Positions 1,178 through 36,588 of a DNA stretch of 64,000 nt are shown here, one piece after another. The stretch spans positions 448,001 through 512,000 of the forward strand of contig CAVOKF010000004.1 in NCBI GenBank assembly GCA_963696385.1, given 5' to 3'. Numbering within the stretch: the first letter of the stretch is position 1; each line of letters opens with the position of its first letter. A program made the position numbers and the translations under genes. Under the pieces are notes generated by a model. That model searched no databases, was not told the origin of the DNA, and saw nothing but the letters and a program-made list of their open reading frames with translations. The stretch is from an uncultured delta proteobacterium (GTDB lineage: Bacteria > Myxococcota_A > Polyangia > Polyangiales > Polyangiaceae).

Positions 1178-1783
1178 CTACCCGCCGATCGGTGGAACGC
1201 CGTACGGTACGGCGATGGCATCCCGCTCCGCTTTTCCGGAGTCGACGAAGATGGGGCCTCCGTAGGCAGCGACCACCGTGGAGCCGTCGTTCGCGCTGGC
1301 GTCCACTGGGACGGCGGAATCGAGCTTGGCATCCGGCGGCTCCGCCTTTCCGGAGTCGACGAAGATGGGACCTCCGTCGGCAGCGACCACCGTGGAGCCG
1401 TCGTCGACGCTTGCGTCCACCGGGACGGCAGAATCGAGACGAGCGGGTGCGTCGAGGACGTCGGAGTCAAGGGCCACTCCGGCGTCTACCGGAATCGGGG
1501 CCCCGTAGACAGCGACCACGGTTCCGCCCGACTCGTCCGGGGCACCGTCGTTGTCTCGTTCGGCGGCCGAGAACTGACCTCCACACGCCACGGCGGTTGC
1601 GGAGAGCGTTCCCACTCGCAAGGCATAGAGCGCGGCGCGACTGAGACGCTTGGCCGGCGACAGCGGCGCTTGCACCGCGCGAAAGGACGAGGGCAATTCG
1701 ACCCGGCAAAACGGACAAGCCGGCTCGTTGACTCGAACATGGCGAGCGCAACTGGGGCACGCGGCCAACGGAATCTGGGTCAC
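1178..1783 (-). CDS. Putative spliceotide/RiPP precursor lipoprotein: N-terminal CxxC...CxxC, lipobox-like TAVAC, repeated XYG motifs
   Basis: GTG start overlaps the rSAM TGA (GTGA) after a GGAGG RBS; CPSCARHVRVNEPACPFC; LSATAVAC; motifs VYGAP, ADGGP, AYGGP, PYGVPP. Confidence 0.75.
   Translation of the reverse strand: MTQIPLAACPSCARHVRVNEPACPFCRVELPSSFRAVQAPLSPAKRLSRAALYALRVGTLSATAVACGGQFSAAERDNDGAPDESGGTVVAVYGAPIPVDAGVALDSDVLDAPARLDSAVPVDASVDDGSTVVAADGGPIFVDSGKAEPPDAKLDSAVPVDASANDGSTVVAAYGGPIFVDSGKAERDAIAVPYGVPPIGG
1225..1440. repeat. 114-bp (38-aa) tandem duplication inside the precursor gene
   Basis: LDSAVPVDAS..DGSTVVAA[D/Y]GGPIFVDSGKAE occurs twice at a 114-nt offset. Confidence 0.9.
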
Positions 1784-2997
1784 CCACGACCTCCCTCGGA
1801 CGTCGACTCGACGATGATTTCGAACACACCGTGATCGAACGGCTCTCCCGGGGCTGCCGTGACGGGCGCAATCCGCTCTCGCTTGCCTTCGCGCGCCATC
1901 TCGATCGCGCGGTGATGGCAATAGGGGTTGTTCCCGGGCCTGCCGAGTGTGACGAAGCTCGTCCACGTGCAGCCGCTCATGCACTCCTCGGCGTAGTAGC
2001 AGGTCCTGCAGTAGCCCCACAGATCGTTCAACGTACGGTCTCGCATGTAGCGGAGCGGTTCGCTTCGCTCCCAGATGGCCTCGAGCGATTCGTCGCGGAT
2101 GTTGCCGCCCGTCCAGCGCTCCGTAGGCAGCGACGGACAGCCCTTGATGGCACCGTTGGCCTCGATGCCGAGCGTCGCGCGCCCGGCCCCGCACGATCCG
2201 CCGTGACCCCGCAAGTAGTGCCCTCGAATGATCGACTCGTACGGCCCGAAGTAGCCGATGTTGTTTCCGGGCCAGAACAGGATTCTGAGTGCGTCGCACC
2301 GCTTCTTCAACGCAGCCAGTCGCGGGAACAGTTCGAGCAGATCATAGGGCTGCAGCAGAACGTTCGGCTCGTCGGCGGCGCGGCCCATCGGCACGGTCAG
2401 CTGGATTTGCCAGCCCCGGATCCCCAGGGCGGCCACCGTCTCGAGAATGCCCTCGAGCAGCGGCATCGATAGGCGGTTGATCTGCGTGTTGCACGACACG
2501 CTCAGGCCGCTGTCCTTCAACGCTTGCAGAGCCGCGATCGCCGCCCGATACGATCCCTTGACTCCGCGGAGACGATCGTGGGTCGGCTCGTCGCCGTCGA
2601 TCGAGACACTCGCCCCCTTGAGTCCCGCGGCCTTTGCGCGATCGACGAGCTCGGGCGTGAGCCCGCGGCCCCCGGTCGTCATGGTGGTGGGAATGCCGTG
2701 GGCGCTGGTGGCGCGGACGAGTTCCAGCCAATCCGGTCGCAAGTACGCTTCACCGCCGATCAGCGTGACTTCCTTCACCCCGAGCCGCGCCATCTGATCG
2801 ATGAGATCGAGCGCTTCCTGCGTCGTGAGCTCGTCGGGACGCCCGCGGCCCGCGCGCGAGCCGCAATGCCGGCACGCGAGGTCGCACGCCAGGGTGATTT
2901 CCCAAACCGCGTAGATGGGGCGGAGTCGGCGGTCGATGTCGCGAACCTCGCCGGCCAGAGGCAAGTGCCTCGCTCCGGGCTTGGCGAGCGGCGCCAT
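1780..2997 (-). CDS. Radical SAM/SPASM peptide maturase, splicease (PlpX/PcpX, TIGR03913-like) type
   Basis: VWEITLACDLACRHCGSRAG (CxxxCxxC); GGE motif; SPASM cysteines SCGAG...KGCPSL...CRTCYYAEECMSGC...NNPYCHHR; start taken at ATG 2997. Confidence 0.85.
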   Translation of the reverse strand: MAPLAKPGARHLPLAGEVRDIDRRLRPIYAVWEITLACDLACRHCGSRAGRGRPDELTTQEALDLIDQMARLGVKEVTLIGGEAYLRPDWLELVRATSAHGIPTTMTTGGRGLTPELVDRAKAAGLKGASVSIDGDEPTHDRLRGVKGSYRAAIAALQALKDSGLSVSCNTQINRLSMPLLEGILETVAALGIRGWQIQLTVPMGRAADEPNVLLQPYDLLELFPRLAALKKRCDALRILFWPGNNIGYFGPYESIIRGHYLRGHGGSCGAGRATLGIEANGAIKGCPSLPTERWTGGNIRDESLEAIWERSEPLRYMRDRTLNDLWGYCRTCYYAEECMSGCTWTSFVTLGRPGNNPYCHHRAIEMAREGKRERIAPVTAAPGEPFDHGVFEIIVESTSEGGRG

Positions 2998-3149
2998 GGG
3001 CAGTCCTCGTGGGGGACGCGCCCGCGCCAGTTCCGTCGCGCGTTCGTTCGAATCGAAGGCCACTAGGTTTCCAGAACAGCACGTTCTGGGCCGCGCTACC
3101 ATCCAGCGGAGAGGCCGGCCCTTTTTTGCGCTCGGAACGGCAGACCCCC

Positions 3150-3815
3150 ATGATCCTGGCGAAGGCGGATGGCACAGCGTGGCGCATCGATCGGGTGGCT
3201 GAGAAGCTGGCGCTTCGGGCCAAGCTTCCGGGGGCACGCGTCTTCGATCTCGCGGCGGAGAGCCTTCGCAACGCCAAAATGGCAGGAGTCTCCTCGATGG
3301 GCCGACTCGTTCTCGCTCTGCCCGCCAGTTGGTGCGTGAACAGTCCGGCTCCGTCGACGGTGTTCCGCCGGTGGGTGCTGCCGCCCGAGCGCGAGGTCTG
3401 GGCGTCACTGATCGAGGTTCTCGACGAGCCCCGGACCGGTCCCTTGGAGGTCGAGTCGAGCGATGCGGTGGTGGCGGCCATCCAAGCCCTCGGACCCGAG
3501 GCCTTCGGTGTGGAGGCGATCAGCAAAGTGCTCGCGCTGCTGGTTCCGGAATCCGTGCCCCTCATGCCTCCGGCCGCCCGGCTGTTCGCGCTCGGCGGAC
3601 CACCCGCTGCGAACGCGGGAGCGTTCGTCGAGATGGTCAATTGGTTCGGAAAGGCCGTGCACGAAGGTCGCGCCGAACTCGCCCGATGGGCCCATCAGCA
3701 CGCCGAGGTGCGGTTGAGCGCGGCGCAGGTGCTCGACCGTCTTCTGTGGTTTGATTCGGAGGGGTACCGTCATTTCCCCAGCGTGCCGCTCGACACTCCG
3801 CCCGCCCCGGTTTGA
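3150..3815 (+). CDS. Hypothetical protein, divergent from the rSAM gene
   Basis: Protein-like composition; AISKVLALL...DRLLWFDS; no family recognised. Confidence 0.55.
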   Translation: MILAKADGTAWRIDRVAEKLALRAKLPGARVFDLAAESLRNAKMAGVSSMGRLVLALPASWCVNSPAPSTVFRRWVLPPEREVWASLIEVLDEPRTGPLEVESSDAVVAAIQALGPEAFGVEAISKVLALLVPESVPLMPPAARLFALGGPPAANAGAFVEMVNWFGKAVHEGRAELARWAHQHAEVRLSAAQVLDRLLWFDSEGYRHFPSVPLDTPPAPV

Positions 3816-3854: not shown

Positions 3855-4715
3855 TCAGGCGCGCTCGAGGCGCACGACAGCGGACCATCGTGCGCTTCCC
3901 ACGTTGCGGGGATCGGGATCGGGAAGAATGCCGAACGGTCGCAGCAGCAGCGGGATCCGCCGCAGCCGCACCGCCTCCCGAAAGGGCAACCGGATATCGA
4001 GCGCCTTCCAACCCATCGTCTCGAAGAAGCCCACGCCTTGCGTAGGAGCAAACTTCATGGGTGCGTGGGCGAGGTGCGCGCCCATGTCCTTGTGCATCAT
4101 GCGCAGGATGGCGGGCGATACGGTGTCGAGCACCCACCAGCGCAGGGTCGGTTGGGCCCATAGGTCTCGACCGAGGTCCCGGACCACCTCTTCATCCAGG
4201 TACACCAGCAGGCCCTCCGTCAAGACAAGCGCCTTCTTGGCTCCTGCTGAGGCGCGCACGAGAAATGCCGATCGCGCGACCGGGTCGGCGAGATCGATTC
4301 GCTCGCGACGGAGCCGACAGCGAGGCTTTTCGCCGGCGAGCAGCCTTTCCTTCTCGTCGATCATGGGCCCGAGATCGGCCTCGACCCAATCGAGCGACGG
4401 CGGCACATCCATGCGGTACGGCCGCGTATCGAGGCCGGCGGCCAGGTTCAGGACGCAGTCACACCCCTGCCGAATCGACGCGGCAATCAAGTCGTCCACG
4501 ATCCAGGTGCGGAGGATCATCGGCCAGCCATTGCGAGTCTGCCTTGGACCGAGCAAGGTCATCGCGCGTCCCCGTTCGCCGGCGAGCCGCGCGGCGTAAG
4601 GGTCTCTGAACAGCGCGTCGGCTCGCGCCGACTCCAGAGCGCGGTAGGCGGCGACCCACCGAGCCGTGTCGGACACGTTTGCGATGAGGGGCGGTGCGGA
4701 CATGGTCGGCGTCAT
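3855..4715 (-). CDS. SAM-dependent methyltransferase, leucine carboxyl methyltransferase (LCM) family
   Basis: VSDTARWVAAYRA..DALFRDPYA, LAAGLDTRPYR, EGLLVYL. Confidence 0.85.
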   Translation of the reverse strand: MTPTMSAPPLIANVSDTARWVAAYRALESARADALFRDPYAARLAGERGRAMTLLGPRQTRNGWPMILRTWIVDDLIAASIRQGCDCVLNLAAGLDTRPYRMDVPPSLDWVEADLGPMIDEKERLLAGEKPRCRLRRERIDLADPVARSAFLVRASAGAKKALVLTEGLLVYLDEEVVRDLGRDLWAQPTLRWWVLDTVSPAILRMMHKDMGAHLAHAPMKFAPTQGVGFFETMGWKALDIRLPFREAVRLRRIPLLLRPFGILPDPDPRNVGSARWSAVVRLERA

Positions 4716-4869
4716 ACTACCCGCATCGGCCCTTGCCGCGCGGGTCCACCGCGGACGCCGATGGGTGGATCGTCGCCACAGGCTGGACCGCGGGTCGCGG
4801 CCAAGATCGGTCTCGGGCCTGGCGAACGGCGTGGTCGCGTCGCCGGCGAGCGCACGACGGGACGACCGA

Positions 4870-5187
4870 TCAGGTGCCGATGGCGAGCCACGAGACATCG
4901 ACGGCCCAGATTTTTGTGTTCAGCCAGGTCTCCGCATGCAATGTGAAACCGCTCCCGGTGATGTCGAGGGCTCGCACGCGGATGCGGGCGTTGTCCTCCC
5001 TGCTCACGTCGAGACCGACCATCCCGATATGAACGACCGGAGGCGCCGAAAAGGATCGGCTAAAGGACACTGGATAACGAAACGCGCGGGCGCCGTTCGT
5101 CGAGGGCTCGAGAAGGGACCATCCTTCGAGCGACGCATCCAGGACGACGACTGCGGACAGCAAGCTGAGCGGAGCAACGTACGACAT
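4870..5187 (-). CDS. Stand-alone H-type lectin domain protein
   Basis: VSFSRSFSAPPVVHIG..LD....N.RIRV....IT..GFTL...TW..TKIW...VSWLAIG. Confidence 0.8.
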   Translation of the reverse strand: MSYVAPLSLLSAVVVLDASLEGWSLLEPSTNGARAFRYPVSFSRSFSAPPVVHIGMVGLDVSREDNARIRVRALDITGSGFTLHAETWLNTKIWAVDVSWLAIGT

Positions 5188-9421: not shown

Positions 9422-9457
9422 GCGAAGCGTGGATTTCACGGACGGTCGGCCGGACGT

Positions 9458-11011
9458 TTGATACGAAGGCCTTCCCCCTTGGCAACCGCCTACCCTCGAA
9501 CCATCAGCACTTGGACCGGGGCCCGAACGACCGCCGCATGGTCGGTTTTCGTCGCGCTGTATGCCATGTTTTTGTGGGGGGTTGTCCGTCCGCCGACGAT
9601 TCGGGAGTGGAGGCCGGCCGACACGCAAACGATCGCCCGACATCTTGCGGAGCCTGGGGCCAGCATTCTTTACCCTCGTGTCGACTGGGGGGGCGACGGC
9701 CCGGGCTACGTGGAAACCGAATTTCAGCTCTATCCATGGTTGGTCTCGCGGCTTCTGCGAACCTTTGGCGACGTGGAGTGGCCCGGGGAGCTGCTGTCGT
9801 TGCTCGCCACCGCCGCGGCTGCCGGCGTCGTATTTCGCGGTCTCGCCCGCGCTCACGGTCCGTTCGCCGCGGGCTTTGGAACCATCGCGCTGCTCGCGTC
9901 ACCGGCCGTGATTTATACCGCGATCCGCGTCCAACCCGAGGCGCTCTGTCTGCTCCTTTACACGAGCGCCTGGTTCGCCTTTCTCCGCTACGAGTCGTCC
10001 TCTTCGTCCTGGTGGCTGGTGATTTACGCGGCTTTGGGAGCGACGGCGATGCTCGTCAAGCCGACTGCGGCCCAGCTCGGAATCTCGTGCTTTCTTCTGC
10101 TCCTCTTCCGGTCGCCCCACCGGCTGAGAACGTGGGGCCCGTGGCTCGCATGGGCATTCATCCTCTCGGTGCTCGGGCTGTATTTGATCCATGCACGGAG
10201 CATTTACCTGGAGTACGGAAACACCTTCGGAGTTCTTTCCGGCGGCGACTCCAAGTTGCCGAGGCTCGAGCATCTGCTCACTCCGCGGCTCTATCTGAAG
10301 GCGGCCGTCCAAGCCGTGCGTTGGGGTACCGGCGTAGCCGGGGCCGCTGCCATGGCGATCCTGCTCGTCATCCGCAAGAGGATCGAGTGCATCGCGGCAC
10401 TGTTCATCGGCAACGCCGTCTGGACGTTGCTCGCATTGCGATACACGTCGCAGGCGGCCGGCAACCACTATCATATACTCGGCGCCGTACTGGCCGCCCA
10501 CGCGGTCGCACTCGTGGCCGAGGCTGCCCTGCGATCGCCAAAGCGCATCGGCGCCGTCTCCGCTCTGTCGGCTGCGTTGGCCGTGGCACTCGGCGTGGCG
10601 CTGAAGCAGCGCAGCCAAGATCGCAAATCCGAATGGGACGCGCCGGTCGTTGCGGCCGGCGTCGCGCTCGCGGGTCTCACGCGCCCCGGCGATCTCGTCG
10701 TCGTTCGATCGCTCGAGCCACGATACGACTCCTACTGGCGCACGCCCAACAACTACCAAGATCCACGCGTCTTTTACCTCACGCGGACTCACGGCTGGGC
10801 GGTTGCCGCGGACGACGCCGATCCGAGCCCCATCGCGAACGCGAGCCGACGCGGCGCGCGCTATTACGTCGAGCCCATGCCTCGCCCGAAAGGCGGCCCG
10901 TTGGATGCCTGGCTGGCCGACCATTGCGCCCTGGTCACGACCACCGCCTTCGGCGGCCGGGTGTTTGAGCTGGATGGCGCGCGTGACGGAGGTCGTCGGG
11001 GCGTGCCCTGA
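9458..11011 (+). CDS. ArnT/PMT-like (GT39/GT83) membrane glycosyltransferase
   Basis: WRPADTQTIARH, EFQLY, multiple TM helices, LVKP; start codon uncertain. Confidence 0.7.
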   Translation: MIRRPSPLATAYPRTISTWTGARTTAAWSVFVALYAMFLWGVVRPPTIREWRPADTQTIARHLAEPGASILYPRVDWGGDGPGYVETEFQLYPWLVSRLLRTFGDVEWPGELLSLLATAAAAGVVFRGLARAHGPFAAGFGTIALLASPAVIYTAIRVQPEALCLLLYTSAWFAFLRYESSSSSWWLVIYAALGATAMLVKPTAAQLGISCFLLLLFRSPHRLRTWGPWLAWAFILSVLGLYLIHARSIYLEYGNTFGVLSGGDSKLPRLEHLLTPRLYLKAAVQAVRWGTGVAGAAAMAILLVIRKRIECIAALFIGNAVWTLLALRYTSQAAGNHYHILGAVLAAHAVALVAEAALRSPKRIGAVSALSAALAVALGVALKQRSQDRKSEWDAPVVAAGVALAGLTRPGDLVVVRSLEPRYDSYWRTPNNYQDPRVFYLTRTHGWAVAADDADPSPIANASRRGARYYVEPMPRPKGGPLDAWLADHCALVTTTAFGGRVFELDGARDGGRRGVP

Positions 11012-11094
11012 ACCTCCGACGACGGTCTCGCACGGCCGCAGAGCCGCAAAATCGGTTTGGATGACCCGTGCCAATCTCCTGCGTCGCTGGATCC

Positions 11095-13536
11095 TCAAGG
11101 CGGAAGAGACGAGCCGCAGTTTTCCGAGTCGTACAGAAGGTACTTCTCGCGCTTGGTGGCGAACGCCGCGAGCTCGGTGCCGTACGTGGCCACGATGGCG
11201 TCGAGCGGCAAACCCGCGTCGATGGCGCGCATCGCGCCGGGGTGCACGAGAAGCCGATCGAGCTTGGCGAACTCCCACGCGCGCGGGTACAGGCGCCGAA
11301 GCGCGCGGGCGACGGCGATGCCTGTGCGTACCGGCTCGAACTGCGTGCGGTCCGTTACGGTCAAATGCAGGCCGTGACACGGCTTGCGCGCATACGGATC
11401 GCGATCCGGAGTGAATGTCTCGCTGGTAAAGGTCACGCCCGCGAGCAAGTCACCCGCAAGGGCCGCGACGAGGGCGTCGCCGGCGATCCAGGGCGCGCCC
11501 AGGCGCTCGAAGGGTCCGTCCGTGCCCCGTCCGACGGAGAGATTCGTGGCCTCGAGAATTCCGACTGCGGGATAGAGCAAGGCCTCGTCGACACTGCGCA
11601 GGTTGGGCGAGGGATTGACCCAGGCGAGTCCTGTTTCGTCGCCATAGAGTGCGCGCCGCCACCCGCGCATGGGGACGATCGAGAGCGCGACGCCCATGTG
11701 ATCGTCGGCATTGAAGAGCGTAGCCAGCTCGCCCACGGTCATGCCGTGGCGAATGGGCAAAGGATGGTCGTTCACGAACGAGCGCGCGAGCGGCATCAGG
11801 ACGGGGCCGGCGACGTCGACGCCATCGATGGGATTGGGCCGATCGAGAACCACGAAGCGTAGATCGTGCTCGCGCGCCGCCTGCATCGCGCGCCGCATCG
11901 TCGAGGCGTAGGTGAAAAAGCGTGTTCCGACGTCCTGGATGTCGAAGACCAGCGTGTCGACGTCCGCCAGGCTCTCGGCGGTGGGGGCGAAGGCGTCTCC
12001 GTAAAGGCTGAAAACAAGCAGGCCGGTGCGTTCATCTCGCCCGCTGGCGACGTTGCCTTGGCGATCGGCATCCAGTCCGTGCTCCGGCGTGAAGATCGCG
12101 GTGAGTCGTACGCCCGGGGCATTGCGGAGCAAGTCGATCGTCGACTGGCCGTCGCGCGCGCGGCCGCTCGCGTTGGTGATCAGGCCGACGCGCTGCCCGC
12201 GCAGGCGTTCGAAGCCTTCGTCGCGCAGCACGTCGATGCCCGCGAGCACGCCGCCGGATGGCGCGCAGGCGGGGGCCCGACCGACCGCCGGCCCGATGGC
12301 TTGGGCGGCCAGCGTGTTCACGGCGGCGACCAGCGGTTTCGCGTCGCCCTTTCCGTCCGGATGCACGCGGTTGGTGAGCACCACCGTGAAAAGGTCCTTG
12401 TCCGGGTCGATCCAAAGCGCGGTGCCGGTGAAACCGAAGTGGCCGATGGCCCTTGGCGACAGTCCGCGGCCGCGCCAGGCGCTGTCGACGGTCCACCCGA
12501 GCGCGCGGACGCCATGGGGCACGTCGTAGGGGGCGATCATGTCGGCCACGCTGCGCGGCGACAGGATCCGCTTGCCGTCCACCGTTCCGCCGCCGAGGAT
12601 CGCGCGCGCATACAGGGCAAGATCGTCGGCCGTCGAGAAGAGCCCCGCGTGCCCCGCGACGCCTCCGAGCAAAAACGCGCGCGGGTCGTGCACCACCCCC
12701 ACGCGCCACGCGCCGTCCACGAGCTCCGTCCATGCGGCCCGCTTGATTTGGGCCTCTGCGGGGACGAATCGGGTGTCGCCCATTCCGAGCGGCGCGAAGA
12801 TCGCCTCGGCGGCGAAGGACGGCAACTCGCGCGACGTCACCCGCCGCACCACCTCCTCGAGGAGAATGAACCCGAGGTCGCTGTAGATGGACACGGTTCC
12901 CGGCGCCGACCGAACGGGCGCCTTGCACACGCGCCGGATGGCCTCGTCCCGGCCATGTGCGAAATCGTCCTTGGGCGTGTCGGAGGGCAGACCGGAAGTG
13001 TGGAGCAGGAGCTGGCGCAACGTGATGGCCTCTTTGCCGCTCTTGCCGCACTCCGGAACGTACTGCACAAGCCGGTCGTCGAGCCTGATCGCCCCGCGCT
13101 CGGCGAGAATCATGATGCAGGTCGCCGTGGCGATGGGTTTGGTGAGCGAAGCCAGGTCGAACAAGGTGTCGACGGTCATCGCCGCACGTTCCGGCAAAAG
13201 CTCGCGGTATCCGTAGGCACGGCGGAACAAGACGCCGTCGTGGCGGCCCACCAGGATGACGGCGCCGGGCACGTCGTGTGCGGCCGTGGCCTGCGCCACC
13301 CGAGCGTCGATCGCCGCCTCCGGGAGGCCGCTTTCGGTCTCCGGCGTGACGCCGGCCTCGACGAAATCGGTCGCCGTGAACGCGGGGGCGGCAACGAGCG
13401 GCGTCGCGAAAGCGATGGGCGCGGGCGTACGGGCGAGATCCTGGGTCCGTCCGCCGCAAAAGCCCAAGGACATTGCGAGCGGCACCAGTCGCCGGGCGGC
13501 GTGGCACACGTGCCGAGCGAACGGGACGGGGGCCAT
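11095..13536 (-). CDS. Serine hydrolase (beta-lactamase/AmiE-like) fused to exo-beta-N-acetylmuramidase NamZ (DUF1343)
   Basis: FDLASLTK (SxxK), YSD, GHAGLFS, HFGFTG; C-terminal GLITN, PEHG, DIQDVGTRFFTY, DRPNP, SPNL, GRGT. Confidence 0.85.
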   Translation of the reverse strand: MAPVPFARHVCHAARRLVPLAMSLGFCGGRTQDLARTPAPIAFATPLVAAPAFTATDFVEAGVTPETESGLPEAAIDARVAQATAAHDVPGAVILVGRHDGVLFRRAYGYRELLPERAAMTVDTLFDLASLTKPIATATCIMILAERGAIRLDDRLVQYVPECGKSGKEAITLRQLLLHTSGLPSDTPKDDFAHGRDEAIRRVCKAPVRSAPGTVSIYSDLGFILLEEVVRRVTSRELPSFAAEAIFAPLGMGDTRFVPAEAQIKRAAWTELVDGAWRVGVVHDPRAFLLGGVAGHAGLFSTADDLALYARAILGGGTVDGKRILSPRSVADMIAPYDVPHGVRALGWTVDSAWRGRGLSPRAIGHFGFTGTALWIDPDKDLFTVVLTNRVHPDGKGDAKPLVAAVNTLAAQAIGPAVGRAPACAPSGGVLAGIDVLRDEGFERLRGQRVGLITNASGRARDGQSTIDLLRNAPGVRLTAIFTPEHGLDADRQGNVASGRDERTGLLVFSLYGDAFAPTAESLADVDTLVFDIQDVGTRFFTYASTMRRAMQAAREHDLRFVVLDRPNPIDGVDVAGPVLMPLARSFVNDHPLPIRHGMTVGELATLFNADDHMGVALSIVPMRGWRRALYGDETGLAWVNPSPNLRSVDEALLYPAVGILEATNLSVGRGTDGPFERLGAPWIAGDALVAALAGDLLAGVTFTSETFTPDRDPYARKPCHGLHLTVTDRTQFEPVRTGIAVARALRRLYPRAWEFAKLDRLLVHPGAMRAIDAGLPLDAIVATYGTELAAFATKREKYLLYDSENCGSSLPP

Positions 13537-13614
13537 TACGGGCGAGGGTACCAGCCCGCTCGTTGGCCGACGCGAACGCTGGTACGGGACGACGCCAAAC
13601 CCCGCGCGGGTGCC

Positions 13615-14280
13615 TTATTCGCCCGGGCTGGGCCGATCCGGAAGGCCCGTGAAGACGACTCCCGCCCCCTGACTCTTGTAAATGCGGTTCATGTGGATCA
13701 AGACCGGCGTGAGGGATTCGAGGGCGATGGCGTTCACGAGCGGTCCCGCGTCGAGGCCTCGGAGCCCGAGGTCGCGCAACAGACCGATGGTCACCCCCTT
13801 CGCCTGGGCGTCGTCGGCGGCGACGAGCACGTCGCACTCGATCGCGTGCGCCGGATCCGCCAGGTGCGTCGCGCTCACATGGTGGAGCGCGGCCACGACG
13901 GGCGTCGAAGGACCCACGAGCTGTTGGGCCTCGAGCGCCGCCGCCCGACCGGCAGGGAGGTTCACGCGGCTCACCTTCGGCGGCACGAGCGGCACGGTGA
14001 CGTCGACGAGCACCTTGCCGGCCAACGCCTCGGCGATGGCACGGACCGTGTCGCCATGGGCGCCGTAAGGTACGGTGAGCACCACGACTTCGCCCTGGCG
14101 CGCGGCCCACACGTTGTCGCCGCCCTCGACCGCGAGCCCCTGGGCCTCGAGCGCTTCGGCGTGAGCGCGTGCCTTCGACGAATCGCGCGATCCGAGGGCA
14201 ATGCTGTGTCCGGCCCGGCCCCATCGCTGCGCGAGACCGCTACCCAATTTGCCCGTTCCGCCTACAATCCCGAGCCGCAT
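13615..14280 (-). CDS. npdG: NADPH-dependent F420 reductase (F420H2:NADP+ oxidoreductase)
   Basis: [36 protein letters not shown]; cof gene context. Confidence 0.9.
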
Positions 14281-14305
14281 CGGATCTCCAGGGCAACCCC
14301 CTAGC

Positions 14306-15094
14306 ATGATCACCTGCAGCCATCGCCTCGAGGTTATAGCCTTGCCGGGACTGCCGCTCGTCGCACCCGGCGATGACGTCCCTGCGCTCGTGGCGCGCGC
14401 GCTGTCGGCGGCGGGGCTCTCGGTCTCCGACGGAGACGTGCTCGTCGTGACGTCCAAGATCGTGTCGCGCGCGGAGGGCCGCTTCGTCGAGCTGCCTCGC
14501 GTCGAGCCGTCGCCCCGTGCCATCGAGATCGCCCGGCAAGTGCGCAAGGACCCCGGGGCCGTCGAGCTCATCTTGCGCGAGTCCATCGCCGTTTCGCGGC
14601 GCGCTCCCGGCGTCCTCGTGGTGCGGCATCGGCTCGGGTTCGTCGTGGCGAACGCGGGGATCGACTTGAGCAACGCCGTGCCCCCCGATGCGCCGCCGGG
14701 CAGCGGCCCGTGGGCGCTGCTGCTTCCCGAGTCGCCGGACGCTTCGGCCGCGGCCATCCGCGCGAGGATCGAGGCCGAGTCGGGGGCGCGCGTGGGAGTC
14801 GTCATCACGGACTCGTTCGGACGGCCCTTCCGGCTCGGTACCGTGGGCGTCGCCATCGGGGTGTCGGGGTTGCCCCCGGTGTGGGACCGGCGCGGTGAGC
14901 CTGACCTCTTCGGGCGCCCCCTGGAGAGCACCGTCACGGCGCTCGCCGACCAGGTCGCGGCCGTGGCCGATTTGGTGGCCGGGCAGGCCGCGGAACGACG
15001 CCCGGTCCAGCTCGTCCGGGGCCTCGGGTTTTCTCCTTCCGATCGAGGCGCGGGGGCCATCCTGCGTCCGGTCGACGAGGACCTCTACGCATGA
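14306..15094 (+). CDS. cofE: Coenzyme F420-0:L-glutamate ligase (no nitroreductase domain)
   Basis: [36 protein letters not shown]. Confidence 0.92.
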
Positions 15095-16009
15095 AGGTCG
15101 TCGCGCTTTCCGGTGGCGTCGGGGGAGCGCGCCTGCTCGACGGCATGGCGCGCGCCCTGCCGCCCGGAGCGATGACAGCCGTCGTCAACACGGGAGACGA
15201 TTTCGTGCATCTGGGGCCTGCACGTGTCGCCGGACCTCGACACGGTGATGTACACGCTCGCGGGTCTCGCACACGAAGAGCGCGGCTGGGGGCTGGCGGA
15301 GGAGACGTTCGCCGCCCTGTCCATGGTCAAGCGCTACGGGGGGGCCGACTGGTTCGCGCTGGGTGATCGGGACCTGGCGACGCACCTCATTCGCAGCGAG
15401 GCGCTGCGCGCCGGGGAGTCGCTCTCCGCCATCACCCAGCGCCTACGGCGGGCGCTAGGGATCCCGCACCCGATCTTGCCGATGAGCGACGAGCCCGTGC
15501 GAACGATGATCGAGACCGTGCGCGAAGGGACGCTGCCCTTTCAGGATTGGTTCGTGCGCAGGCGGGCAGAGCCCGCCGTGCGCGCGGTGCACTACGAGGG
15601 CGGACGCACGCCGGCCCCGGGTATCCTCGAGGCCATCGACGCGTGCGACGTCGTGGTCTTCGGACCCTCCAACCCGTACGTCTCGGTCGATCCCATCCTG
15701 TGCCTGGACGGCGTACGCGACGCCGTTCTGCGCAAGCCCGTCGTTGCGCTGAGCCCCATCGTGGGCGGAGCCGCGATCAAGGGCCCGCTGGCGACGATGA
15801 TCCGCGACCTGACCGGACAGGCCGCGTCCGCCGGCGCCGTGGCCCGGCACTACCGCGGGCTGATTCGCGCGATGGTCGTCGAAAGCGGGGACGAGACGAC
15901 CGTCGCGGCGATTCCCGTGCTGGGGACCTCGATCATCATGCGATCCGGTGAGGACCGCATCCGGCTTGCGCGCGAGATCCTCGCGTTCTGCGCCGAGCTC
16001 GTACGATGA
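15091..16009 (+). CDS. cofD: 2-phospho-L-lactate transferase, split by a +1 frameshift near 15211-15216
   Basis: [10 protein letters not shown] and NTGDD in one frame; [23 protein letters not shown] in the next; removing one base restores H[L/W]GLHVSPD. Confidence 0.88.
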
Positions 16010-16620
16010 AGCGGCCCGCCTGGGCCATCGTCCCCGCGAAATCGCTCGTGCACGGCAAGTCGCGCCTTCGCCCCGTGCTCGGTGACGAGGACCGCGCCCT
16101 ATTCGCTCGGCGCCTCCTCGAGCACACGCTCGACGCGCTCAACGGGTGCGCCCTGGACGGTGTGCTGGTCGCGGCGGGCGATGACGACGTGGCCTCCCTC
16201 GCCACCTCGCGGGGGGCTCGGGTATTGCGGGATCGCGGTGAGGGGTCGCTTGCAGACGTCGTCGACCGCGCCCTCGCCGAAGTCGAGTCACGAGGCGCCG
16301 CGTCGGCGGTCGTGCTGATGGCCGACTTGCCCCTGATCCAAGCCGATGACGTGGCGCGCTTGTTCGCGGCCCTGGTCGACCATGACATCGTCCTCGTGGC
16401 GGACCATGTCGGCCACCATACCAACGCGCTCGGGCTTGCCCCACCGTCCGCCATGCCGACGTCGTTCGGGCGTGCGGACAGCTTCGCGGCCCATCGCGCA
16501 ATGGCGCGTGCGGCGGCGCTGCGTGCCATCGTCATCGAAAGCGAGCGCATTGCCTTCGATGTCGACACGCCCGCCGATCACGAGCAGCTCAAGAGGCCTC
16601 GACGGGCAGCCGGAACTTGA
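16006..16620 (+). CDS. cofC: 2-phospho-L-lactate/PEP guanylyltransferase
   Basis: [36 protein letters not shown]. Confidence 0.9.
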
Positions 16621-17854
16621 AGCGCGGGTCGCGCGCGAGTTGGTCGTAGCTCCCGAAGATCCCTGCGGGATCCTCTACGCCGTCGAGACGGTCGTACTCG
16701 TCCGGACCGGGCTCGCGCGGGAAGGTCCGCAGAACCTCGTATCGCGTGCTCCGCTCGATGGGCATGCGCCCTGCGTCGCGGATGGCGCGCCGGATCGCCG
16801 AGGGCGCTTGCAGCTGACCGTACGTGGCTCCGGCCGCGGTCGAGATGCTCTCGTTGATGAGCGTGCCGCCGAAGTCGTTGGCTCCGCACGACAGGAGCCA
16901 CTGGGCTGCGCGCATTCCGTCCTTCACCCATGAAACCTGCAGGTTCCGGATGGTGACGCCCAGCATCAGCCGGGAGATGGCGTAGAGGCGGATCACGTCG
17001 TCGCCGGTCGGACCTGGGCGCAGATCCGGCAACTGTTGCCGCAGCGTCATCGGCGCCTCTTCGTGGACGAATGAAAGCGGCACGAACTCGGTGAAGCCGC
17101 CGGTCCTGCGCTGGATCGAGCGCAACAGATTCAGGTGCTCCATTCGCTCCAGGTCGGTCTCGACGTGGCCATGCATGATGGTCGAGGTCGTGGGCAGGCC
17201 GAGTGCGTGCGCGGTCGTCACCACGTCGACCCACTCGGCGCTCGTGATGCGGCCGGGTGCAATCCGAGCGCGCACGCGATCGTCGAGCACTTCGGCAGAG
17301 GTGCCCGGCAGCGAGCCGAGGCCGGCTTCCTTCATCTCCTCGAGCACTCGACGCAAGGACCATCCGCTCTGGGTAGCGGCGTACTTCACCTCCTCGGGCG
17401 ACAAGGCGTGCACGTGCAGATCGGGCGCCGCCGCCTTCACCGCTCGGACCAGCGCGACGTAGAAACGAGCGTCGACGCCGGGCGCGAGCCCTGCCTGGAT
17501 GCAGACCTCGGTGGCGCCGAACGACTGCGCCTCGAGCGCGCGTCGCACGATCTCTTCGATGGGCAGGAAGTATCCCTCCTCGCTCCGCCGGGTCCGCGAG
17601 AACGCACAGAAGCGGCACGCCTTGGCGCATACGTTGGTGAAGTTGATATTGCGGTTGACGACATAGCCGACCGCTTCGCCGACTTGCGCTCTGCGGAGGT
17701 GATCGGCCACGGAAACGAGCGCAAGCAGCGCGGGCCCGCGTACTCCGCACAAGAGCAGGGCCTCGTCGACACCGAGCTCGACGCCCTCGAGAGCGCGGTC
17801 GAGAACTTTCCGCACGTCGCCCGATACCGCGCGAAATACCCCATCGAGGCTCAT
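16589..17854 (-). CDS. cofH: FO synthase subunit 2 (radical SAM)
   Basis: VVNRNINFTNVCAKACRFCAF, PGTSAEVL, GGFTEFVPL, GANDFGGTL.NESIS. Confidence 0.9.
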   Translation of the reverse strand: MSLDGVFRAVSGDVRKVLDRALEGVELGVDEALLLCGVRGPALLALVSVADHLRRAQVGEAVGYVVNRNINFTNVCAKACRFCAFSRTRRSEEGYFLPIEEIVRRALEAQSFGATEVCIQAGLAPGVDARFYVALVRAVKAAAPDLHVHALSPEEVKYAATQSGWSLRRVLEEMKEAGLGSLPGTSAEVLDDRVRARIAPGRITSAEWVDVVTTAHALGLPTTSTIMHGHVETDLERMEHLNLLRSIQRRTGGFTEFVPLSFVHEEAPMTLRQQLPDLRPGPTGDDVIRLYAISRLMLGVTIRNLQVSWVKDGMRAAQWLLSCGANDFGGTLINESISTAAGATYGQLQAPSAIRRAIRDAGRMPIERSTRYEVLRTFPREPGPDEYDRLDGVEDPAGIFGSYDQLARDPRFKFRLPVEAS

Positions 17855-19008
17855 GACGGACCCGGGTGAGGGGCGAGCCGCGCTTGCACTGCGCGCGTAG
17901 GCGCGACCAGGCGAGGGTCGAGAAAGCCTGGACGATCGACGTAGCGGTCGTAGATGGAGGCGCGGGGAAGCAGCGCGAAGCCGGCGCCGGCACACGCGGC
18001 TCGCAGCGCGTCGAGGTGCGGCCATGGGTGACGCGGGTTGATGTAGTCGGGCGTGACGGGCGATATGCCTCCGAAGTCGTTGAGTCCGGACGCGAGAAGC
18101 CGCTCGGCCGACGCCGGGTTCAGGTTGGGCGGCGCCTGCAACGAAATGTCGCCGTCGAGGATCAGGCGCGCCAGGGCCAGAGTGAGCGTTACCTCGTTGT
18201 CGTCGGGTTCTGGCGCGTGGCTCATGGGCACGCCTGGCACGGCACGAAAGTTCTGCACGATGACCTCTTGCACGTGTCCGTGCCTGCGGTGAGCGTTTCG
18301 GATGGCGAGCAGGCTCTCGACACGCTCGCGCCAGGTCTCGCCAATTCCGACGAGGATGCCGGTGGTGAAGGGGATCCGCAGTCGCCCGGCGCCGTCCATC
18401 ATGGCCAGCCGCTTGTCGGGTCGCTTGTCGGGTGCACGGTGGTGCGGCATCCCCGGCTCGCAGAGGCGAAGGCTCGAGGACTCGAGCATCAAGCCCAAGC
18501 TCACGTTCACTTCCTTGAGGCGCGTCATTTCCGCGTCCGACAGGAGCCCCGCGTTCGTATGCGGCAAGAGCCCGTGGGCCAGGGCCTTCGACCCCGCCCA
18601 AACCAAGTACTCGACCGTGCTGGCCTGGCCCAACGTGGCGAGTGTGCGGCGGTACGCGGAGAACGCCTTCTCCGGCTTGTCGCCGAGGCAGAACAGCGCC
18701 TCCGCGCAGCCACGCTCGCGCCCTACGGCGAGCTGCTGCTCGATTTCGTCGGGCGTCATCGTCCACTCGCCGGGATCGCCCGGCGAGCGGCGGAACGAGC
18801 AATAGTCACAGTGGTTTCGGCACAGGTTGGTGAGCGGCAGAAATACCTTGGGTGAGTAGGTGACGACGCGCCCAAAAAGCGCGTCGCGCACGGCGCAGGC
18901 CGCGGCGCGAATGTCGACGGCGTGGCCGCCAGCCAGCAGGTCGCCGTCGGCGAGTGCGAGTGCCTCGTCATCCGAAAGCGGCGCGGACAGAGAGACGCGT
19001 CGGATCAC
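17851..19008 (-). CDS. cofG: FO synthase subunit 1 (radical SAM)
   Basis: TYSPKVFLPLTNLCRNHCDYCSF, LPHTNAG, PFTTGILVGIGE, QAPPNL, GGISPVTPDYINP; start approximate. Confidence 0.9.
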   Translation of the reverse strand: MIRRVSLSAPLSDDEALALADGDLLAGGHAVDIRAAACAVRDALFGRVVTYSPKVFLPLTNLCRNHCDYCSFRRSPGDPGEWTMTPDEIEQQLAVGRERGCAEALFCLGDKPEKAFSAYRRTLATLGQASTVEYLVWAGSKALAHGLLPHTNAGLLSDAEMTRLKEVNVSLGLMLESSSLRLCEPGMPHHRAPDKRPDKRLAMMDGAGRLRIPFTTGILVGIGETWRERVESLLAIRNAHRRHGHVQEVIVQNFRAVPGVPMSHAPEPDDNEVTLTLALARLILDGDISLQAPPNLNPASAERLLASGLNDFGGISPVTPDYINPRHPWPHLDALRAACAGAGFALLPRASIYDRYVDRPGFLDPRLVAPTRAVQARLAPHPGPS

Positions 19009-19022
19009 GATTGACGTCGCGC

Positions 19023-19427
19023 TCAGCCCATCCCGGCGACGGAAGTCGGCTGGATCTCGTAGATCACGCGCACCTCGCCCGGCTGACCGAAGGGATACTT
19101 GTCTTTGCCCAAGTACTTTTTGGCGAGAAGGTCGATGTTCGCGGCTGCGCCTTCCTCGGTCGCCCGGACAATCGTGCCGCGGACAGCCAGATGCGCGTAG
19201 GGGTTCTCCGGGTCTACGATGGAGAGCGCGACGCGGGCGTTCCGCGTCATGTTGCGGTCTTTGATGCGACCTCGCGCCGTGTTCACGATGAATCGGCCTT
19301 TGTCGTACAGAAACCATACCGGCGTCACCTGCGGCGAGCCGTCGGCCATCACGGTCGCGAGGTGCGCGAGCGCCTTCTTCTCGGTAAGGACGGGCAGAAA
19401 CTTCTCGGGAATCGTCGTGCTTGCCAT
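19023..19427 (-). CDS. PPOX-class F420-dependent oxidoreductase (FDOR-B)
   Basis: AHLATVMADGSPQVTPVW, K.RN...N.RVALSIVDPENPY. Confidence 0.85.
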   Translation of the reverse strand: MASTTIPEKFLPVLTEKKALAHLATVMADGSPQVTPVWFLYDKGRFIVNTARGRIKDRNMTRNARVALSIVDPENPYAHLAVRGTIVRATEEGAAANIDLLAKKYLGKDKYPFGQPGEVRVIYEIQPTSVAGMG

Positions 19428-19518
19428 GGGCTTTGCCTCCGCGAGTTTCGACGACGCACTATAGCCCAGAAGAAGCGCGTCGAGCGCGCTCGCTCCGTCG
19501 ACGCCAAGCGCGTGCACA

Positions 19519-19947
19519 CTACGCCTGCCGCACGAGGTGAACGATGGGGATCACCCGCGTCGTCTTCTCCTGGTACTTTCCGAAATCCGGCATCTGCTGG
19601 GCGATGGCCGTCCAAAGCCGATCGCGCTCGGGCCCCTCCACGGTGACCGCGCGCGCTCGCCACTTGTCGGCGCCGAGCTGGACGCCAACCTCGGGATTGG
19701 CGCTCAAGTTCTTGTACCAAGCCGGGTGCTGCGGCGCGCCCGCCATCGACGCGATGACGAAGGTGTCGTCGCCGTCGAAGAACGGCACCACCGGCACGGT
19801 GCGCGGGTGGCCGGACTTGTTCCCGACCGTCGTGAGAAGCAGGATCTTCCTGCCCCGCATCGTGCTGCCGCGGCGGCCGCCGGACGACTGGTAGAGCCAC
19901 ACGTGACCTTTGACGAACAGTTTGAATAGAAGGTTCACGGCGTGCAT
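19519..19947 (-). CDS. Deazaflavin-dependent nitroreductase-like oxidoreductase (Ddn/FDOR-A)
   Basis: LLLTTVGNKSG..RTVP, AS.AG...HPAWYKNL.ANP, YQ.KT.R.IP. Confidence 0.88.
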   Translation of the reverse strand: MHAVNLLFKLFVKGHVWLYQSSGGRRGSTMRGRKILLLTTVGNKSGHPRTVPVVPFFDGDDTFVIASMAGAPQHPAWYKNLSANPEVGVQLGADKWRARAVTVEGPERDRLWTAIAQQMPDFGKYQEKTTRVIPIVHLVRQA

Positions 19948-33922: not shown

Positions 33923-34105
33923 TGGCCCGCCTCATGGGACACCTACTAGGCCGTTGGACGGTCCGGGCCGCCATCCCCCTACGCAAGAATCGACAGGTCG
34001 CTCTCGTGGCCGCGTCATGCCGGCGGAGCGTCGATGGAACGCAAAGCCCGCGTAGGGAGCCCGCGGCCGCCAGCGTCAGAGGATCGAACACCCAGGAGAT
34101 GTCCC

Positions 34106-34723
34106 ATGAAAGTCGCGTCGTCTCTGTCCATTCTTGCCTTCGTGCCCGTGTTTCTCGCCCTCGACACCGTTTGCTCGCTCGCGTCCGCAGACGATCAAGG
34201 GCCCACCCCCGCGACGGCGCGGGCGTACGCGCGCCTGCTCCAACGCTTCGACTCGAACCACGACGGCCTCTTGCAAACGACCGAGCTGCCGGCGCCGCTC
34301 GATCGCCGGCTCGGAGCGGCCGACTCCGATCACGACGGCGTGATCACGCCGGAGGAGCTTCACCGCTACGGCGTCCAACGGCGCGCGGCCCGGTTTGCGC
34401 GCGCCGACAAGAACGCGGACGGAAAGCTGGATCCGTCCGAGGTCGGAGCGGACCGCTGGGACTACTTGAAGGTCGCGGACGCCGACGGGAACGGGACGCT
34501 CACGCTCGACGAGATCGAGCGCGCCGTGGCGTCCGGCACGCTGCACGGCATGTCGGCGGAGGAGGTCTTTCAGCTCCTCGACCGCAACGGCGACGGGGTG
34601 ATCGATCTCAGCCGGGCCAGGGAACGCGAGCGCGCGCTGCTTGGCCCGGCCGACACGAACCACGACGGGAAGGTGACCTTCGCGGAGCTCAAGGCTTACC
34701 GCGTCGCGATCGGCCGCGATTGA
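34106..34723 (+). CDS. Secreted multi-EF-hand protein
   Basis: Signal peptide; six DxD/NxDG loops (DSNHDG, DSDHDG, DKNADG, DADGNG, DRNGDG, DTNHDG). Confidence 0.85.
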   Translation: MKVASSLSILAFVPVFLALDTVCSLASADDQGPTPATARAYARLLQRFDSNHDGLLQTTELPAPLDRRLGAADSDHDGVITPEELHRYGVQRRAARFARADKNADGKLDPSEVGADRWDYLKVADADGNGTLTLDEIERAVASGTLHGMSAEEVFQLLDRNGDGVIDLSRARERERALLGPADTNHDGKVTFAELKAYRVAIGRD

Positions 34724-34856: not shown

Positions 34857-36260
34857 CTACGGCCCCCCCGACTGGGTCGGGTCCTCGATGTGACCGAGAA
34901 AAAGGATAGCCCCGGTGGGCACGTCGACGATGGCCATCAGATAGGGCCGGTTCACAACCATTGGAATGGGTTGCGGTGGTTGCGAGGCGACCCCATCCGC
35001 CCCCGCCACGACGACCGCCGTCGCCGCGGCCGCCTCGACACCCGTTTCCTGCATCGAGACCGTCGCCTTCTGGAGGACGTCGGAGACGTATAGGTTGAGT
35101 CCGTCCGGCGTGTGCGGACACATCCCCGAGAAGTCGGCCTGGACCGGATCGAAGGCCTGAGTCATTCCCATGGCCTTTAGCGCCGTTGCGAGAGAGAAGG
35201 TCGGTGAAGTGAAGGTGACCTTGGGCACCGAAATCGCGACGAGCGCGTACGAGGCCGGCAGAACGAGCGGGGGCGCACTCACGGCCAGGCCGGCTTCGTA
35301 CGTCGCGAGGGCGACGCCCGGATGCGGGACCGCAATGACCACCGACAGTTGACCGGCGAGCGGCAGCCCGGCAATTTGCGCCTGGCCGTCGTCGACGTAC
35401 GGCACCGACTCGGTCTGGTTCATGAAGCTCGGCGAGACCGTCAGGCCGTCGGCGCGCACGAACAATCCGGTAGCCGTCGCCGTGGAATCGAAGACGCTAG
35501 ACCACGGAAACTTCAAGTGCAAGGCGTTGACGAGCACCATGCGCGTGAGGCTGCTGAGCGCACCGACCGGCAGCAGGTCGTTGATCTTGTCGTCGGTCTC
35601 GGAGCTCACCCAGGCGTTGATCGTGCCGGTCGCTTGGACCCACTGATTAACGAAGTCTTGCAGGTGTACGCCCGTGCCGTAGCTCGTCGCGAGGATCGAT
35701 AGGAACGGAGCCGCCCACGGGTAGGTCTCTTCGCCCCAGACGGAGTTGACGACCTCCAGTTGGTAGTTATCGGCCGAGGCGTCTGTCTCGTCTTGTTGCT
35801 CGTTGGCGATCGCGGTCGGTCCACGCGACGCGAGGGCTTGGCTCAGGGCATTCTGCCCGTCGAAAATCGACGTGCCGCCGTCGGCGTCGAAGTGCAGGGC
35901 GGTAGCCATCTGTGTCGCGGTCGGCCCCACCGCTCCCGCATACGCCATGACCAACGCCAGTGAGGCACTCAGAGGCGATGTGAGCAGATTGCTCGCTCCC
36001 GCGTCCGAGTCCACTTCGGAATACAGATTCAAGGCAAACGCATTGTTGGCGGCCACGGCGGCGTCCAACGCGGCGGCGGAGACTTGGGCGGCCGGGACGC
36101 GCACCGCATCCGCCTGGTCCACGGTGGATTCCGCCCCTCCGTCACGGGTCGGTACCGAAGGCGACGCGTCGGGGGACGATGCCGACCCTGCGGACGAGCT
36201 GCACCCAGGGAGTGCCAAAAGAACGCCGACGGATAGCGAAAGAACAGCCGATCTCAACAT
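34857..36260 (-). CDS. Serpin family lipoprotein
   Basis: Lipobox LPGC; NNAFALNLY, SPLS, LVNALHLK..W, hinge ETGVEAAAATAV, NRPY..ILFLG. Confidence 0.92.
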   Translation of the reverse strand: MLRSAVLSLSVGVLLALPGCSSSAGSASSPDASPSVPTRDGGAESTVDQADAVRVPAAQVSAAALDAAVAANNAFALNLYSEVDSDAGASNLLTSPLSASLALVMAYAGAVGPTATQMATALHFDADGGTSIFDGQNALSQALASRGPTAIANEQQDETDASADNYQLEVVNSVWGEETYPWAAPFLSILATSYGTGVHLQDFVNQWVQATGTINAWVSSETDDKINDLLPVGALSSLTRMVLVNALHLKFPWSSVFDSTATATGLFVRADGLTVSPSFMNQTESVPYVDDGQAQIAGLPLAGQLSVVIAVPHPGVALATYEAGLAVSAPPLVLPASYALVAISVPKVTFTSPTFSLATALKAMGMTQAFDPVQADFSGMCPHTPDGLNLYVSDVLQKATVSMQETGVEAAAATAVVVAGADGVASQPPQPIPMVVNRPYLMAIVDVPTGAILFLGHIEDPTQSGGP

Positions 36261-36588
36261 AGGCTGAGGCCACGCACGGTCCGTGCCACGTCGCCGGCAT
36301 CGGCCGCTTGCCAGCCGTCCTCCCGCGGCATCGCTCCGGGCCGCGTGCCAACCTGCGCCACCGCGATCGATGCGTCTCAAGCTCCTCGGAGAGTCTTTGT
36401 TCGCACCCATCGGCCCACACGGCAACGGGCGCTCCCGGATGGTCTTTCGGAAGTCCGCGTTCGGCCCAGCCGCGCCAAGGTGTCATCGGATCGAGCCAGC
36501 CGATGACGAAGGGCGCTCGAGCCATCGTCAGCATTGGTGCCAATGGGGGCGTGGGGAGCGTCGCGCTCCTCGAGGCGTGAGAGGACTA

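Follow-up and report, generated by a model that had tools for sequence, protein, structure and literature searches.

An eight-gene cluster for coenzyme F420 was found at positions 13615 to 19947 of a 64,000-nucleotide stretch (hereafter, the window) of contig CAVOKF010000004.1, which comes from an uncultured Polyangiaceae-type myxobacterium of soil, wetland, and peat. With a probability of about 0.8, we consider it to be a chromosomal, functional F420 module that is old and conserved in part of the phylum, has been kept by a minority of the host family, probably with exchange and loss inside that family, and is not a recent import from a classical F420 lineage. The enzymes are ordinary members of known families; what is new is the phylum, for which F420 production is so far undescribed and in which the genes are widespread. 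The preliminary description of this DNA knew of no proof of F420 in myxobacteria, and full-text literature searches likewise returned no paper on F420 biosynthesis in these organisms, with an earlier listing in Table 4 or Fig. 5 of the 2021 F420 review (PMC8498797) or in Ney et al. 2017 being possible. The available part of that review names Acidobacteria, Firmicutes, Nitrospinae, Rokubacteria, Tectomicrobia, Dadabacteria, Chloroflexi, and Alpha- and Betaproteobacteria, and the strings Myxococc, Deltaproteobacteria, and Polyangi have 0 occurrences each in it (PMC8498797).

Profile searches identified the eight contiguous genes as fno, cofE, cofD, cofC, cofH, cofG, and genes for an FDOR-B and an FDOR-A (Table 1), which is the set that the preliminary description had placed there. 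Seven of the eight exceeded the respective NCBIfam cut-offs, with the profiles covered almost end to end, the exception being cofD, and the Pfam assignments were concordant for all eight. The genes are tightly packed: the stop of cofE overlaps the start of cofD, the stop of cofD that of cofC, and the stop of cofG that of cofH; cofC and cofH converge and overlap at their 3' ends, and fno and cofE are divergent with ~25 bp between them. CofG and CofH, each with a CxxxCxxC motif in the translation, are encoded by two open reading frames (ORFs) with overlapping ends that match two profiles, without an FbiC-type fusion, again in agreement with the preliminary description. The window has a G+C fraction of ~0.67, and many spurious ORFs therefore overlap the real genes. 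A promoter scan gave 0 promoter-like sites, a terminator scan gave 3 terminator-like sites against 3.2 expected, and an Rfam search gave 0 matches.

Table 1. Features of the F420 cluster and other features of the window (aa, amino acids; L005, the closest relative locus)
Feature	Position	Strand	Match or remark
fno, NADPH-dependent F420 reductase, 221 aa	13615-14280	-	TIGR01915, 178.9 bits (cut-off 149.8); PF03807; 96% identity to L005
cofE, F420-0:L-glutamate ligase, 262 aa	14306-15094	+	TIGR01916, 260.3 bits (cut-off 180.65), profile 1-242/244
cofD, 2-phospho-L-lactate (or enolpyruvyl) transferase, two frames in assembly	15091-16009	+	TIGR01819
One extra base in cofD, run CTGGGGCC	15210-15216	+	Left out at 15211 in metagenome contigs
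cofC, guanylyltransferase activating the C3 acid, 204 aa	16006-16620	+	TIGR03552, 144.9 bits (cut-off 105)
cofH, FO synthase radical SAM subunit, 421 aa	16589-17854	-	TIGR03551, 452.4 bits (cut-off 374.1); PF04055, PF19288
cofG, FO synthase radical SAM subunit, 381 aa, GTG start	17851-18996	-	TIGR03550, 408.1 bits (cut-off 213.35)
FDOR-B, PPOX-class F420-dependent oxidoreductase, 134 aa	19023-19427	-	TIGR03618, 100.2 bits (cut-off 79.05)
FDOR-A, Ddn-like deazaflavin-dependent reductase, 142 aa	19519-19947	-	TIGR00026, 101.6 bits (cut-off 46.35); PF04075, 128.8 bits
Beta-lactamase-fold (serine)/exo-beta-N-acetylmuramidase NamZ fusion, 813 aa	11098-13536	-	Conserved at 92% in L005
IS630-like transposase, two overlapping frames (DDE_3, HTH_32)	36603-37714	-	16 kb from the cluster; sole transposase
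UvrA accessory paralogue, 978 aa	59579-62512	+	52-53% identity in the same genus, 70-77% in other genera of the family
Radical SAM/SPASM protein	1783-3408	-	Beside the leucine carboxyl methyltransferase-family gene
Leucine carboxyl methyltransferase-family gene	3858-4898	-	

Read from the ATG at 15091, the conserved N terminus of CofD extends for 41 residues and the remainder lies in the next frame. Residues 1 to 41 match positions 1 to 36 of TIGR01819, and the C-terminal 261 residues match positions 43 to 300 with 247.2 bits, below the cut-off of 257.45 because the single extra base near 15211 shifts residues 1 to 41 to the other frame; the L005 orthologue, which is intact, reaches 304.1 bits, and in the relatives both parts of CofD are contiguous in one frame. 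This is the sole frame-breaking indel within the cluster genes in comparison with L005 and with another relative, L006. Over positions 14300 to 16700, we compared the window with contigs from 4 of 20 listed metagenome runs (X1, X5, X7, and X10), which come from four studies. All four omit the base at 15211, with depths of omission of 12.1/12.1, 6.4/6.4, 4.3/4.3, and 2.6/2.6; X1 is a possible source of the window sequence, and X5, X7, and X10 are independent of X1. Because the contigs of four runs from four studies omit the base, the break is an assembly error in the G run, not a mutation, and cofD is intact in nature. Thus, the broken gene implied by the “repaired cluster” of the preliminary description is an artifact. 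Taken as given, the window sequence with its two cofD frames would also fit a dead pathway, in which cofD is a true pseudogene and either FO is the end product or nothing is made. However, with the letter absent at full depth in every run compared, cofD contiguous in relatives, the seven other genes matching their profiles end to end, and no photolyase in the genome that would use FO alone, a dead pathway is barely conceivable.

The same contigs differ from the window at 16665-16666, where those of three of the four runs have TG against GC in the window (this site is not covered in the fourth run). The substitution turns CofH residue 397, a position that is variable among relatives, from Ala to Gln; it stems either from strain variation or from another assembly error. 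Several cof genes in the metagenome-assembled genomes (MAGs) of L019 and L006 match in fragments only, a hint that these assemblies, too, contain frame errors.

The likely course of the pathway can be outlined from what these enzyme families are known to do. CofG and CofH would convert tyrosine and a riboflavin-pathway intermediate to the deazaflavin FO, CofC would use GTP to activate a C3 acid, either 2-phospho-L-lactate (2-PL) or phosphoenolpyruvate (PEP) and not 3-phosphoglycerate (3-PG), CofD would join the activated acid to FO, and CofE would add glutamates. Fno would then reduce F420 with NADPH, and the two small FDORs would spend F420H2 on quinones or other unsaturated compounds, endogenous or foreign. 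We infer from the sequence both that F420 is made and what the FDORs may act upon.

The linker of the cofactor is predicted to be lactyl, because CofC has Gly, not Ser, at the site that is diagnostic for 3-PG. This Gly is aligned with G163 of Mycobacterium tuberculosis FbiD and with S162 of the Mycetohabitans enzyme, so that the Ser or Thr of 3-PG enzymes is lacking, and His occupies the position equivalent to H145. According to the available part of Hasan et al. 2022 (PMC8764529), Ser at the S162 position is diagnostic of 3-PG tolerance, CofC enzymes with Gly at that position favored 2-PL or PEP, introducing His alone (T152H) gave no 3-PG use, 2-PL and PEP are indistinguishable by in vitro CofC assays, and dehydro-F420 is the less stable compound.

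The search for the reductase that the PEP route requires was negative. CofE is a stand-alone protein with PF01996 as its sole Pfam family match and no C-terminal nitroreductase domain, and a genome-wide search gave no reductase of the FbiB-C/FbiE type, the best TIGR03553 match being a BluB-like ORF with 30.4 bits (cut-off 249.55). This would leave room for a variant cofactor in place of classical F420, such as 3PG-F420 or unreduced dehydro-F420, and the former would also agree with the best solved relative of CofC being the 3-PG enzyme 7p97 (72.7 bits versus 46.9 bits for M. tuberculosis FbiD) and with the His at the H145-equivalent position. However, Gly at the diagnostic position, the preference of Gly-containing enzymes for 2-PL or PEP, the insufficiency of His alone, and the lower stability of dehydro-F420, the last three as reported in the part of PMC8764529 referred to above, make such a variant quite unlikely, and we retain the prediction of a lactyl linker.

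FDOR-B was considered for the role of the missing dehydro-F420 reductase. It is located directly upstream of cofG in all 13 close named loci that have sequence there. However, its homologues are present in only 20 of the 33 cof-positive genomes of the host family, which rejects it as the essential reductase, and it does not adjoin cofG in the examined loci of the families designated f2 and f45, which rejects it as a general pathway step. Being absent from 13 of those 33 genomes, FDOR-B looks like an accessory client rather than a step of the pathway; a clade-specific role may exist. In the sister family f2, a short-chain dehydrogenase gene (L079:7484-8290, minus strand, in genome G445; PF00106, 137 bits) is located between cofC and cofH, and it may be a candidate for the linker-forming or reducing step. 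Genome G308 shows a gap of about the same length. A member of the host family (G101) has a 194-residue ORF inserted between cofG and cofH (L089:8026-8610, minus strand).

The FDOR-A and FDOR-B classes are best known from mycobacteria. FDOR-A of the cluster matched Protein Data Bank (PDB) entries 8d4w, 3r5z, 7kl8 (Ddn), and 3h96, that is, mycobacterial and Nocardia Ddn/FDR-A proteins, and the best match of FDOR-B was 3f7e (64.2 bits), with MSMEG FDR-B and Rv1155 as its nearest solved relatives. Genome-wide, PF04075 detects a single protein, FDOR-A of the cluster, and TIGR03618 a single protein above the cut-off, FDOR-B of the cluster. A third predicted F420 enzyme, of the Rv2061-type PPOX class, is encoded on another contig (G000:C1:293100-293447; TIGR03666, 112.9 bits, cut-off 84.9), where it adjoins a histidine kinase gene. 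“Self-contained,” as the preliminary description called the cluster, is therefore nearly right, with the reservations that this third enzyme lies elsewhere and that no dehydro-F420 reductase was found. Genome-wide searches gave no luciferase-like enzyme of the F420 type (the 10 PF00296 genes all belong to the FMN types SsuD, SfnG, NtaA/DmoA, and MsnO8), no FrhB-like domain, and no photolyase domain, which rules out a photolyase antenna as the purpose of FO. In the host family, the distribution of both FDORs follows that of the pathway: 23 of the 151 genomes encode FDOR-A (PF04075), 22 of them cof-positive, and 21 encode FDOR-B homologues, 20 of them cof-positive, with the same 57%-complete genome being the sole cof-negative exception in both cases.

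The host genome (G000) comprises 6.94 Mb in 8 contigs and is 96.4% complete. A CofH-based scan of named genomes gave 25 loci. Fifteen of these, with CofH identities of 76 to 96%, come from 10 Polyangiaceae, 2 Myxococcales, and 3 MAGs titled “uncultured delta proteobacterium,” and most of the 15 share the same full gene order. The others are a single delta-proteobacterial MAG (67%), 7 Acidobacteriota and 1 Aminicenantes (46 to 58%), and a “Proteobacteria bacterium” (57%). The left flank of the cluster (9456-13539; 4.1 kb without F420 genes), which encodes a PMT_2 glycosyltransferase and the beta-lactamase/NamZ fusion, is 92.8% identical at the nucleotide level to L005, titled Polyangiaceae. The flank and the closest named relatives thus bear out the myxobacterial host proposed in the preliminary description. 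In L005, fno and the NamZ-fusion gene are separated by 2.3 kb (L005:7783-10126) that the window does not have. The metagenome contigs compared, which come from soil, wetland, and peat, contain the stretch at at least 99% identity, and the habitat is taken from these four runs alone. UvrA was rejected as a host marker, since the window copy is a patchy paralogue, closer to those of other genera (up to 77%) than to those of the same genus, and RpoB was used instead.

In the host family (f1), cofD is present in ~33 of the 151 sampled genomes, a count that combines 29 matches above the cut-off with 4 clear ones that are split, truncated, or slightly lower scoring (G000, G118, G055, and G090) and excludes 6 genomes with matches below 35 bits only; CofH is present in 31. 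Throughout the phylum, 116 of the 401 sampled genomes encode cofD at E <= 1e-40 (111 above the cut-off) and 116 encode CofH. One carrier of the cluster, G086, is a complete genome of 12.3 Mb in a single contig. The gene is nearly fixed in some families (18/23, 11/11, and 8/8) and absent or almost so in others (0/34, 0/9, and 1/29). The core layout, in which fno-cofE-cofD-cofC faces cofH-cofG, is found in families f1 and f2, and the f45 locus has the same core apart from fno, but the stretch stops there at the contig end. CofH sequences of the phylum fall into two identity classes, one at 54 to 64% with cofD adjacent and the other at 43 to 50% with cofD elsewhere. Long open frames had hinted at a fused FbiC in the second class; in all 5 genomes examined from it, cofG and cofH are adjacent in different frames, and the two genes are separate in the first class as well.

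In the preliminary description, the compact layout was taken to suggest a transferable module. In its strongest form, this would be a recently acquired mobile genomic island from another phylum, and several observations could be read in this way. Among the 19 genomes with full-length RpoB at at least 87% identity (partial matches were excluded), the cluster is found in a single one, G013; G060, of the same genus and 97% complete, has neither cofD nor CofH; the right flank beyond 20172 is not common to the window and L005; and Acidobacteriota CofH sequences occur among those of the family. However, neither an integrase or transposase at the border nor a tRNA nor a deviant composition was found (border repeats were not searched for): the window has no tRNA, the 47 flanking ORFs scanned include no integrase, the sole transposase is distant from the cluster, and the G+C fraction of the cluster (0.687) is within 2 standard deviations of the other 6.3-kb stretches of the window (mean, 0.665; standard deviation, 0.013). 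The left flank is syntenic with L005, and the nearest non-myxobacterial sequences are only 57 to 58% identical. A recently acquired island is thus very unlikely. As a transferable module, the cluster qualifies weakly: the patchiness in the family and the conflict between CofH and RpoB described below speak for it, and the ordinary composition, the lack of a tRNA and of an adjoining integrase, the six-gene core layout in three families of the phylum, and the separation of families by CofH in the same way as by RpoB speak against it.

Cof protein phylogenies, proposed in the preliminary description as a check for horizontal transfer, gave a divided answer, with CofH agreeing with RpoB at the family level and incongruent within the family. 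Paired RpoB and CofH trees were built for 23 genomes (18 from f1, 3 from f2, and 1 each from f45 and f36). In the RpoB tree, f1 is set apart from f2, f36, and f45 with a support of 100, and in the CofH tree it forms one side of a branch with a support of 99/99 (f2, 100/100). Since both markers separate f1, the window copy is part of the gene pool of the family itself. Among the family members, RpoB groups G000 with G013 and G089 (support, 100), and CofH groups G000 with G013 and G033 (100/99).

The reading of an old, functional module faces a number of contrary observations. Besides Fno, the genome encodes only three predicted F420-dependent enzymes, which is a thin reason for keeping a six-gene pathway, and if CofC uses PEP, one step is without an assigned enzyme. 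The identity of CofH to the window copy does not follow that of RpoB (rho = -0.02, n = 17, with 13 of the 30 CofH-positive family genomes omitted for lack of a full-length RpoB match), and the CofH data reject the grouping of G000, G013, and G089 in the approximately unbiased (AU) test (log-likelihood difference, 28.8; p-AU = 0.0044). In a wider, 55-row CofH tree, from which L019 and L028 were omitted (coverage, 0.62), seven Acidobacteriota rows are nested among the family sequences. Finally, the genomes are MAGs, and mis-binned contigs could be the cause of part of the CofH/RpoB conflict.

Since CofH identity does not track RpoB and the AU test rejects the RpoB grouping, the history of the cluster was not simply vertical. 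The within-family conflict could come from exchange among members, from old paralogy with differential loss, or from the mis-binning of MAG contigs; the patchy presence, together with the incongruence, makes exchange or loss among family relatives likely. The nesting in the wider CofH tree suggests transfer between Acidobacteriota and Polyangiaceae, and keeping all non-myxobacterial CofH rows together is not rejected by the AU test (p = 0.47), which also counts against an island from another phylum.

Four known systems are the closest parallels to this one. The F420 operons of Alphaproteobacteria (Paracoccus denitrificans and Oligotropha carboxidovorans; Ney et al. 2017, as cited in the available part of PMC8498797) likewise belong to Gram-negative hosts, have CofC, CofD, and a stand-alone CofE clustered with fno, and serve few F420-dependent enzymes. 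However, Proteobacteria carry a fused FbiC according to the same source, whereas CofG and CofH are separate here, and two FDOR genes are attached to the myxobacterial cluster. The archaeal cofC/D/E/G/H pathway (2-PL route) shares with it the split CofG/CofH, a stand-alone CofE without a nitroreductase domain, and Gly at the specificity site of CofC, but the host here is a bacterium, and its cof genes form one cluster with fno and FDORs. Mycobacterial fbiA/B/C/D and Thermomicrobium FbiE (PEP route via dehydro-F420-0) have the chemistry up to F420-0 in common with the myxobacterial pathway, and the FDOR classes, best known from mycobacteria, are shared as well, with PDB matches that include 7kl8, 3h96, 3f7e, and Rv1155. 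The myxobacterium departs from these systems in lacking an FbiC fusion, an FbiB nitroreductase domain, and a stand-alone FbiE, and it has three FDORs instead of dozens and no luciferase-like enzymes of the F420 type. In Mycetohabitans rhizoxinica, which makes 3PG-F420 (PDB 7p97; PMC8764529, available part), CofC is the best-scoring solved relative of the window enzyme and the route needs no reductase, but its diagnostic Ser162 is replaced by Gly in the window.

The case adds to the problem of how the lactyl moiety is formed in bacteria that lack FbiB or FbiE. A broader proposal, which we regard as tentative and on balance unlikely, is that Myxococcota are a large and overlooked group of F420 producers, with the genes in about 3 of every 10 sampled species, and that they make the lactyl linker by a route without every known dehydro-F420 reductase, which would point to an undescribed enzyme or to an equally undescribed bacterial source of 2-PL. 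Candidates are genes that accompany the cluster, among them FDOR-B, fixed upstream of cofG in the clade of the window, and the short-chain dehydrogenase of the sister family. If the proposal is true, these bacteria, with only three FDOR clients, would be the simplest system for learning the purpose of F420 in Gram-negative soil bacteria. So small a client set makes the physiological question tractable, with three FDORs to examine in place of dozens. Myxobacteria are producers of natural products, so F420-dependent tailoring may matter for genome mining. Why the non-actinobacterial producers make F420 is an open question in the available part of the 2021 review (PMC8498797). An Fno-like gene has been described in a myxobacterial lanthipeptide cluster in a 2025 paper, which, in its available part, calls this feature unreported in myxobacteria for secondary-metabolite biosynthesis (PMC11876861).

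Elsewhere in the window, the radical SAM/SPASM protein and the neighboring leucine carboxyl methyltransferase-family gene may be a peptide-modification pair. The window also encodes several eukaryote-like proteins, namely, an H-type lectin, an EF-hand protein, a serpin, and a pepsin-type aspartyl protease (coordinates 4873-5187, 34034-34720, 34860-36425, and 54708-56174).

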